64,000 nucleotides of DNA from Paenibacillus sp. (GTDB lineage Bacteria; Bacillota; Bacilli; Paenibacillales; YIM-B00363), in NCBI GenBank assembly GCA_032117095.1, contig JAULZZ010000122.1, forward strand, positions 168 through 64,167, given 5' to 3'. Both the position numbers and the translations under genes were made by a program. Position 1 is the first letter of the stretch, and every line of letters starts with the position of its first letter. Below the pieces are notes generated by a model. The model saw nothing but the letters and a program-made list of their open reading frames with translations. It was not told where the DNA came from and ran no database searches. Positions 26,312 to 62,303 of the stretch are shown here, one piece after another.

Positions 26312-26399
26312 GGATGCCTCTATAAAAGCGCATCACCATTGGCAAAAAAAGCGTTGGTTTGTGGCAACGTGATTTTTTTACAAATCGGTTTATCAAACG
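26312..26399 (-). repeat. Family-2 inverted-repeat element (degenerate distal end)
   Basis: ggatgcctctataaaagc...gtttgtggcaacgtgatttttttacaaatcggtttatcaaacg aligns with the reverse complement of 50815-50910. Confidence 0.6.
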
Positions 26400-30870: not shown

Positions 30871-30953
30871 GGGAACGTGTCATTTTTCACGGCGTTTTAT
30901 GCATAGGAACGACGACAACCCTCTTCACACACAAACGTGCAAACCCGTGATCT

Positions 30954-31062
30954 AATATTAAACACTACTGATTGAATTCAGGAATCCTATTGGTTAAAAA
31001 GCGCAGTGATTTATTGTGAAATGGGGCTCTTGGTATGGACGTTTTTTATCAGTGTTTAGTAT
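30954..31062 (-). repeat. Family-1 MITE-like element, full length
   Basis: aatattaaacactactgattgaattcaggaatcctattggttaaaaagcg...tatggacgttttttatcagtgtttagtat. Confidence 0.8.
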
Positions 31063-31179
31063 AAGAACGGTTTTATACGGATTCCAGTGAAATCATAAGG
31101 AAAAAAATTCTCGTTCCCTCCAAGTGCTTCACGAAGGGAGAGAAAAGATTTTTCTAGATTTGATGCCGAATGCGTATGA

Positions 31180-33261: not shown

Positions 33262-33473
33262 CAGGAAACGGTCTTGAGAACAAGAGACAAGCCACGTACG
33301 CCAAAGCGGTGTTCATGGCTTATTTTTTTCGTGCTTGATTATTATTCAAACGTTTGATATAATAATAAAACAAAACACTTTTGCATCCCATGTTTTGGGT
33401 GACCCTGTCCATCATGCTTCCTCAAAAACAGCATTGACACCCATTCTTGGATAAAATACAGCAGTGTGCTAAT

Positions 33474-33489
33474 GGGCACCTCTATAAAC
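33474..33489 (+). repeat. Solo copy of the family-2 terminal motif
   Basis: gggcacctctataaac is identical to the terminus 27 nt downstream. Confidence 0.7.
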
Positions 33490-33500
33490 CACTTTATAAT

Positions 33501-33602
33501 GGGCACCTCTATAAACTACATCATGCGCATAAACATACGCAAAAAAATCGTTTCTTACTGCATGCAAAGTAATTTTTGACAAACCAGTTTATAGAGATGC
33601 CC
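33501..33602 (-). repeat. Family-2 inverted-repeat element, complete
   Basis: gggcacctctataaac...gtttatagagatgccc. The interior aligns with 50815-50910 when reverse-complemented. Confidence 0.7.
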
Positions 33603-33680
33603 AAAAGTTATAAGTTAGATAAATACGAATTTAAACTCCAGAAATAACCAATGGAAAAATGAAGATAGAGGGTGACAGTG

Positions 33681-50732: not shown

Positions 50733-50740
50733 TCTCATAC

Positions 50741-50944
50741 TCATAAGAAACATTGTTTGAATACAGGAATCCTGCTGGTTAAAAATCCCTTTTTTAGCAA
50801 AATGTAGCCCTATAGGACACTCTATAAACACGTTTGTAAAAAATCACCTTGCCACAAACAAATGATTTTTTGTGCATGTTTGTGCGTGTGATGGGTTTTA
50901 TAGTGGCGCCCTCTGCATCGATGTTTTTAATCCGTGTTTCGTAC
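50741..50944 (-). repeat. Family-1 MITE-like element interrupted by a family-2 element
   Basis: The left part ctcataagaaacattgtttgaatacaggaatcctgctggttaaaaatc and the right part ctctgcatcgatgtttttaatccgtgtttcgta are contiguous in other copies. Confidence 0.75.
50815..50910 (+). mobile_element. Family-2 inverted-repeat element nested in the family-1 copy
   Basis: ggacactctataaac...aaaaaatca(ccttgccacaaacaa)tgatttttt...gttttatagtggcgcc. The termini are inverted and the centre is an A-run/hairpin/T-run. Confidence 0.7.
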
Positions 50945-51017
50945 TGCGGCATGCATAGGCAAAGTGGCGAGGGCGTACCGAACATCTGTGGTAGGAACAG
51001 CGGAAGGGATGACGCAA

Positions 51018-57242: not shown

Positions 57243-57267
57243 TTGTTGACATTGCAGTTTATAGAGC
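57243..57267 (-). repeat. Fragment resembling a family-2 terminus
   Basis: ttgttgacattgcagtttatagagc compared with tttttgacaaaccagtttatagagatgccc at 33572-33602. Confidence 0.35.
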
Positions 57268-62059: not shown

Positions 62060-62122
62060 GGGCACCTCAATAAACCGTTGTAAAAAACTCTTCCGTAAAC
62101 AAGCGTTTTTTATTTTTTTGCG
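62060..62122 (+). repeat. Left half of a family-2 element
   Basis: gggcacctcaataaaccgttgtaaaaaactcttccgtaaacaagcgttttttatttttttgcg aligns with 50815-50880. Confidence 0.55.
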
Positions 62123-62156
62123 ATGCGAATGACGTGTTCAATACATCCGATTGGGC

Positions 62157-62223
62157 AACACTCATTTTTCGAGAAAGAAAACGGCATCCCTCTGTATAGA
62201 TGTTTTGAATAGGGGGTTCGTAT
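62157..62223. repeat. Half family-1 element
   Basis: cactcatttttcgagaaagaaaacggcatccctctgtatagatgttttgaatagggggttcgtat. Confidence 0.6.
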
Positions 62224-62303
62224 GAGTCTGATGCACCATATTGTCATGGCATTTTGAAGAGGATCCGATTGCAACACGTTTTTTGGGGAGGATGAACATT
62301 CAG

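Follow-up and report, generated by a model that had tools for sequence, protein, structure and literature searches.

The repeat of about 100 bp that lies at positions 33474-33602 of the window (the whole stretch of 64,000 nt analysed here, from Paenibacillus sp. contig JAULZZ010000122.1) belongs to a family, named here family 2, that is very probably a bacterial non-autonomous MITE whose ends are those to which the DDE transposase of one particular IS5-family IS responds. The family is new, its kind well known, and it is ordinary selfish DNA. A conspicuous repeat is thereby explained, and the tempting regulatory reading of it lacks support.

The preliminary description had proposed a second repeat family with defined termini, and this is borne out both in the window and genome-wide. 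The 16-mer GGGCACCTCTATAAAC, with up to three mismatches, was identified six times in the window against 0.25 times expected, and none of 100 shuffles reached six. The four copies of the window align over the whole length once the one at 33501-33602 is reverse-complemented. The genome searched comprises 1.74 Mb in 157 contigs with 49.7% G+C (assembly 91% complete), and in it a profile made from the window copies gave, after one iteration, 104 nhmmer matches dispersed over many contigs, about 90 of them full length. An Infernal sequence-only model identified, independently, 102 copies in the same genome, so the similarity holds up under proper statistical alignment; its loss there had been named in the preliminary description as one possible refutation.

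The consensus of the family is GGGCACCTCTATAAACCGATTTGTAAAAAATCACtTTGCCGTAAACAAgCGcTTTTTTGCgtATGTTTATGCGTATGATGcgcTTTATAGAGGTGCCC, bounded by 16-bp terminal inverted repeats (TIRs) of sequence GGGCACCTCTATAAAC. The modal length is 98-99 bp, too short for a protein of any length. The termini are the best-conserved part of the element, the 15 terminal pairs of the TIR being complementary in 65-99% of the copies, and outside GGGC...GCCC conservation falls sharply, the exceptions being a preferred A just 5' and a preferred T just 3' of the element. Mean pairwise identity among the copies is 73%. A young subfamily comprises seven copies at least 93% identical, five of them with perfect target-site duplications (TSDs).

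Two copies in the window are full length, as had been described; with respect to the consensus of the family their strands are opposite. The first is 33501-33602 (minus strand, 102 bp; nhmmer E=2.4e-27, Infernal E=1.8e-22), with TIRs GGGCATCTCTATAAAC and GTTTATAGAGGTGCCC on the minus strand and a sequence close to the youngest subfamily. Its flanks, TTTT and ATTA, form no TSD, and this mismatch suggests a rearrangement of that copy, probably one between copies. The second, 50815-50911 (plus strand, nhmmer E=3.2e-28; the end was earlier placed at 50910), is nested in a MITE of another family, family 1 (about 50740-50945), and its excision together with one TSD leaves a continuous family-1 alignment (E=3.1e-19). 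The third copy, 26301-26399 (minus strand; nhmmer 26301-26394, E=5.3e-18), is older. It had been taken as complete at 26312-26399 and is a real copy whose 5' terminus (..GTTTGATAAAC) is degenerate and whose 3' terminus, TTTTATAGAGGCATCC at 26312-26327, can still be recognised. The fourth was known as a partial copy at 62060-62122; the match is significant and extends to about 62138 (62060-62138, plus strand; nhmmer E=3.4e-11, Infernal model positions 1-88, E=2.5e-9). It is 3'-truncated, with the left TIR GGGCACCTCAATAAAC and the right end missing, and is followed by a partial family-1 element at 62151-62224. Among the smaller pieces first listed with the family, the solo terminus at 33474-33489 is an exact match; 22161-22176 comes instead from a relic of the parent IS, of which it is the left end (84% identity); and 22081-22098 and 57243-57267 are not significant in nhmmer (E=0.39 and 5.3).

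The flanks of the copies carry the mark of transposition. In 19 of 75 copies a stretch of exactly 4 bp is perfectly repeated on the two sides, whereas the null mean is 1.2 and none of 2000 shuffles exceeded 5, and no direct-repeat signal was identified in the 2-, 3-, 5-, 6- or 8-bp registers of the same flanks. Per-position identity of the flanks is 0.53-0.67 in the 4-bp register only. The duplicated sequence is A/T-rich with the consensus T-W-W-A (TTAA, TCAA, TTGA, TTAT, CTTA, TAAA and similar). The TSD is perfect in about a quarter of the copies, as few as would be expected of an old family, and matches at three of the four positions or better in about half. The copies are also strongly intergenic: on a crude map of 1,609 ORFs (87% coding), 24 of the 104 share more than 20 nt with an ORF, where chance would predict 94, and most of these overlaps are with short ORFs running through the element. 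Spacers with a copy are much longer even after repeat subtraction (median 414 vs 143 nt).

A REP/BIME-like or small-RNA gene family, propagated through a RAYT-type enzyme or recombination and with no DDE transposase involved, would likewise be palindromic, intergenic and present in many copies. Such an origin is extremely improbable here. The TSD is a sharp 4 bp, and RAYT/IS200-type mechanisms are not known to produce one; the unit is about 99 bp, whereas REPs are short imperfect palindromes of about 20-40 nt; there is neither orientation bias nor covariation; and a DDE-type IS with identical ends exists. An Rfam search of the window identified only tRNAs and no family match to the repeat.

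Insertion was examined through the copies that lie in family 1. This family resembles family 2 in belonging to the same genome, in its similar size (about 105 bp), intergenic location and inverted termini, and differs in that its termini (ATACGAAACAC...) are unrelated to the GGGCACCTCTATAAAC of family 2 and that it comprises about 282 copies against about 104. For each full family-2 copy the element and one 4-bp repeat were removed in silico and the joined flanks aligned to the family-1 profile. Excision of 14 copies restored a continuous and essentially full-length family-1 alignment, with E values down to 4e-29, and therefore family 2 inserts. One example reads TTTTTAACCAAT, the element, then CAATAGG, where the family-1 consensus has TTTTTAACCAATAGG. 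At least four distinct insertion sites were identified in family 1: profile position about 37 (10 copies), 80 (two, CAAT), 76 (TTAA) and 97 (TCAA). The ten copies at position 37, including 50815-50911, have the same relative orientation and are 81% identical within the group against 73% to the rest. The simplest reading of these would be a single insertion followed by amplification of the composite inside the family-1 element, the alternative being a target hotspot.

The two families share more than these sites. They co-occur in spacers (odds ratio 3.3-5.2), and 24 of 92 family-2 copies overlap or abut a family-1 copy. A family-2 copy elsewhere in the genome (G000 C117:22610-22733) contains a 24-nt insert, AATACGAAACACGTTGTTTCGTAT, made of two family-1 termini head to head, which is a footprint or else a family-1 element shortened to the extreme; with this family-1-derived insert within a family-2 copy, nesting goes both ways. 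An orthologous empty site for the 33501 copy was not recovered in the sister genome, the only other one of the genus, where ppk1 is 61% identical at the amino acid level, ppx is not its neighbour and the spacers cannot be aligned. The pyk-ppk1 spacer of the window (30871-31179) is 309 nt long and contains a family-1 copy at 30958-31062; its counterpart in the sister genome (L106, G001:C225, 2249-2282) is about 35 nt long and has no repeat.

The preliminary description had suggested a search for an IS with GGGCACCTCTATAAAC inverted repeats, and the finding of such an IS is decisive. A metagenome contig of 1,719 bp (L098) carries an intact IS of 1,337 bp with perfect 16-bp TIRs, 16/16 identical to the MITE consensus, and a 4-bp TSD, TCTA, in the order tcta, GGGCACCTCTATAAAC ... 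GTTTATAGAGGTGCCC, tcta. Its single ORF, P0001, encodes 348 aa with the domains PF05598 (DUF772) and PF01609 (DDE_Tnp_1) and is named 'IS5 family transposase'. This protein was the best match (71% identity) when joined pieces of a transposase of the sister genome, with X at the stops, were searched against a protein collection. The flanks of the contig have no match in the genome that carries the MITEs, and therefore the contig comes from another organism or strain. Two more distant relatives of P0001, with 45-46% amino acid identity, belong to elements with TIRs GGGAACCTCTAAAAAC and GGGCATCTCTAAAAAC and 4-bp TSDs TAAA and TTTA. Intact ISs with related ends and 4-bp TSDs show that the end motif, the TSD length and the T-N-N-A target belong to this IS clade as a whole, and family 2 has all three. 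The IS5-type subgroup of the ISfinder classification makes 4-bp duplications, and the target of E. coli IS5 is YTAR, the T-W-W-A of family 2 being looser. Nothing citable was found in the literature on TSD lengths of the IS5 subgroup; the three intact ISs identified here all have 4 bp.

The likeness between the IS (DUF772 plus DDE_Tnp_1, as in the IS5 family) and the MITE consists in the TIR and the TSD length, the difference being that the MITE is non-coding and, the TIR apart, not significantly similar to the IS. The MITE interior compared with the subterminal regions of the IS was not above shuffles, with the exception of an A-run (best p=0.014, the 9-nt GTAAAAAAT). The family-2 MITE is not a simple internal-deletion derivative of this IS, and their kinship runs through the 16-bp TIR only. 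As to mechanism, a transposase supplied in trans would bind both 16-bp ends and excise or copy the element, and insertion at a 4-bp staggered cut in an A/T-rich T-W-W-A target would leave the 4-bp TSD. To judge from the shared ends, a transposase of the P0001 type or a close relative probably moved the family-2 copies.

Traces of this IS were identified in both genomes of the genus. When the 16-mer GGGCACCTCTATAAAC was searched with at most one mismatch in 400 genomes of the order, 54 matches fell in the genome of the window and 4 in the sister genome, the rest being background. In the sister genome one match is a full MITE copy beside a family-1 copy, and two are solo ends beside frameshifted pieces of IS5-type transposase: a left end with the N-terminal domain (L096), and the C-terminal DDE domain, matched by PF01609 at E=1.5e-22, with GTTTATAGAGGTGCCC about 190 nt further on (L094). 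In the genome of the window, blastn with the intact IS as query gave five pieces. Three lie on other contigs: C6:42620-42759 (right end, 86% identity), C92:395-603 and C141:7536-7606. Two lie in the window, both on the plus strand: a left end at 22161-22204 (IS positions 1-44, TIR GGGTACGTCTATAAAC; 84% over 44 nt, E=7e-6) and a piece of the 5' coding region at 24341-24432 (IS positions 212-303; 74% over 92 nt, E=4e-9). A tblastn search of the assembly with the transposase pieces of the sister genome gave no match, the assembly being 91% complete in 157 contigs, so that an intact copy could be missing from it. TIR-flanked segments of 0.3-6 kb, or TIRs at contig ends, were sought in the same genome and only chance-level pairs with four mismatches were identified. 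The IS was once resident, and the assembled 91% of the sequence keeps nothing of it but fragments. With no gene for such a transposase in the assembly, family 2 can be regarded as now largely fossil and probably immobile in this genome.

Another transposase of the genome was considered as partner in a PF01609 search and rejected: the intact one on contig C89 belongs to an ISAs1-type element whose ends, CAGGGCAAAAGCATTTACTTTT, differ from those of family 2, and a truncated copy on C6 is likewise no partner. The C89 gene (C89:3844-5041) encodes 398 aa, and its 22-nt inverted repeats CAGGGCAAAAGCATTTACTTTT are at a contig end. The truncated ISAs1-type copy (C6:42373-42612) abuts the right-end relic of the IS5-type element. 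In the window the IS5-type relics (22161-22262 and 24341-24432) bracket an orphan HExxH gene (22603/22795-24327). Two relics lie about 190-250 nt upstream of T-run promoters (TTGACATCG-T13/T16-GTATAAT), one being 24341-24432 of the window (T16, gene 24913) and the other on C141, and the IS fragment seems to be part of a repeated leader module of a variable gene family (window gene 24913 and C141).

The copies had been read as bidirectional intrinsic terminators, and a selected role at gene ends, as terminators or RNA-stabilising hairpins and especially near A/T-rich orphan genes, was weighed against the MITE reading. The whole consensus folds strongly as RNA (-43.6 kcal/mol, z=-7.9), but the strength of the fold is dominated by the 15-bp stem of the TIRs, which is common to any inverted-repeat transposon. 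The central hairpin between A and T runs, on which the reading had been built, exists in some copies; 26301-26399 is the only one of the window with a hairpin and T-run in both directions (26351-26370 on the plus strand, 26369-26352 on the minus strand). In the consensus fold, however, the internal hairpin is GUAAACAAGCGC-UUUUUU-GCGUAUGUUUAU, where the T6 run is the loop and no 3' tail follows. Among 74 copies the inner GCGC/GCGU stem pairs in 40-75%, and the outer part is conserved in sequence with almost no double changes; RNAalifold on the same copies gave no consensus structure and manual pair counts no covariation. Orientation relative to the flanking genes is random in tandem spacers, with 29 copies co-directional and 32 opposite. 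Tandem, convergent and divergent spacers account for 66/16/18% of the copies against 64/16/20% expected from spacer length, and divergent spacers need no terminator. The TSDs and nested insertions are left unexplained by such a model. Selection as terminators or stabilisers is therefore very unlikely, given the random orientation, the length-matched spacer types, the lack of covariation and the T-run in the loop.

The proximity to A/T-rich orphan genes, noted earlier from the window, amounts genome-wide to at most a weak trend, which is lost after controls. Genes flanking family-2 copies are slightly lower in G+C (0.494 vs 0.504 for all genes, p=0.049), and 18% of them, compared with 11% of all genes, are below 45% G+C; genes beside family-1 copies are shifted likewise. 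When spacer occupancy was modelled by logistic regression, low flanking G+C gave p=0.025 with spacer length included and p=0.105 when family-1 presence was added, family-1 presence itself staying strong (p=2e-6). The link to orphan genes is mostly a link to long, repeat-tolerant, A/T-rich spacers and to family-1 elements.

Among the copies inspected visually, a doubled terminus was identified at 33474/33501 only. In the orientation of the element the order is ...GTTTATAGAGGTGCCC, ATTA, TAAAGTG, GTTTATAGAGGTGCCC, ATTA..., and the segment 33474-33496 (23 nt, minus strand) comprises one exact 16-nt terminus (33474-33489) and is bracketed by TAAT at 33470-33473 and 33497-33500, which is ATTA on the element strand. 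It looks like an older, internally deleted copy reduced to its right end with its own 4-bp TSD kept. At 33473-33500 the solo terminus and the adjacent TATAAT make a promoter-like match, TGGGCA-16-TATAAT (10/12, a consensus match only), that points toward the orphan gene at 33672/33681 from 170 nt upstream; the full MITE would occupy the leader.

An arrangement of two direct and one inverted 16-mer at 33474-33602 can also be read as operators of a host regulator that control the adjacent orphan genes, and both the conservation of the termini, highest in the element, and the promoter-like match just described would suit such a role. Operators are nonetheless highly improbable, since the same 16-mer ends an IS5-family IS on an unrelated contig and binding by transposase explains the conservation, while the doubled terminus, found at one site among the copies inspected, is explained by the 23-nt remnant with its own TSD. 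There are moreover about 100 sites across all spacer types, and no gene-class specificity tested positive. The earlier suggestion that the termini are protein-binding sites thus holds in a trivial sense, most likely as transposase-binding ends, and not as operators.

Under the MITE reading, effects of family-2 copies on neighbouring genes would be incidental, and such effects are possible for individual copies. It is unlikely, though worth naming, that some copies were co-opted as regulatory parts of low-GC variable orphan cassettes and that the IS/MITE burst contributed to the making and dispersal of these cassettes in a lineage with a reduced genome. Candidates for co-option may be the doubled terminus at 33473-33500, which places a 102-nt hairpin element in the leader of 33672/33681, and the relics at 24341-24432 and C141:7536-7606, each some 200 nt upstream of a phase-variable T-run promoter. 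Amplification of the family-2-inside-family-1 composite (about ten copies) as a unit is a related possibility.

The expansion of family 2 is narrow. The Infernal model identified 102 copies in this genome, one in the genome of the same genus and none in 11 further relatives, and the expansion is therefore specific to the species-level lineage. A BLAST search of 40 relatives with the consensus gave nothing outside the genome of the window and was set aside as too insensitive, the pattern and model searches having found the sister copy and the relics. A plasmid database searched with the consensus gave one chance-level match. The pattern CCTCTATAAAC-N55-75-TTTATAGAGG was scanned in 185,579 species genomes, the genome of the window not being among them, and MITE-like elements with related ends and unrelated interiors were identified in two termite-gut MAGs (Defluviitaleaceae Lab288P3bin199 and Bacillota Cu122P5bin39) and in a Bacteroidota MAG. 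These elements share with family 2 the ends GG(N)A(N)CCTCTATAAAC and a length of 85-110 bp, and the Bacteroidota copy (L060) has the TIR GGGAACCTCTATAAAC and a 4-bp TSD, TTTA; they differ in their interiors and in their hosts, which are from other families or phyla.

Known bacterial MITEs with TIRs in common with IS5-family elements are represented by BrickBuilt and MITE239/293/464/700 of Porphyromonas gingivalis (ISPg1/3/4/9) and by ATR of Neisseria meningitidis (ISNme1) (PMC4596501). Like family 2 they are small, non-coding, intergenic and multi-copy, are often nested in other mobile elements, and have the same kinship with an IS through the ends only (PMC4596501). Differences are found in the TIR, GAGACCTTTGCA in BrickBuilt-type elements against GGGCACCTCTATAAAC here; in the TSD, variable in BrickBuilt and uniformly 4 bp in family 2; in the number, typically 10-20 copies per bacterial genome (PMC4596501) against about 100 in 1.74 Mb; and in the parent IS, which in the host of family 2 survives as relics only.

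Together the two MITE families comprise about 390 copies, or about 2% of the DNA, in a small genome (1.74 Mb, 91% complete) of an uncultured lineage. Genomes of relatives in the family are of 3-7 Mb, and of the IS with the family-2 ends this genome has kept nothing but relics. An earlier burst with later transposase loss is a pattern typical of genome-reducing lineages and useful for dating the reduction. For annotation, the family model can mask about 100 loci and flag solo ends and IS relics that might be mistaken for operators or promoters. The end motif GG(N)A(N)CTCTA(T/A)AAAC, with 4-bp T-N-N-A duplications, makes a clade of IS5-family elements and their MITEs recognisable in several phyla.

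Some further loci were noted during the searches. Cu122P5bin39 (G043, L074-L093) contains 27 matches to the end pattern, mostly GGCAACCTCTATAAAC, with an interior that contains TGTCATCCTGAGCGAAGCGAAGGATCT, and no transposase or partner IS was identified next to the solo ends inspected there. Two genomes of one genus in the same order, otherwise without the repeat, each have GGGCACCTCCATAAAC twice in direct orientation with a spacing of 20 nt (G076:C8:77148-77183 and G126:C233:75945-75980), which could be a pair of binding sites or an IS end. An abundant palindromic repeat of 77 nt, starting with CCTCTATAAACAGAGG and ending with CCTCTGTTTATAGAGG, was identified at L016, L045 and about 45 other loci in Butyricimonas, Odoribacter and Sanguibacteroides; it has an 11-mer in common with the ends of family 2 and a different architecture.
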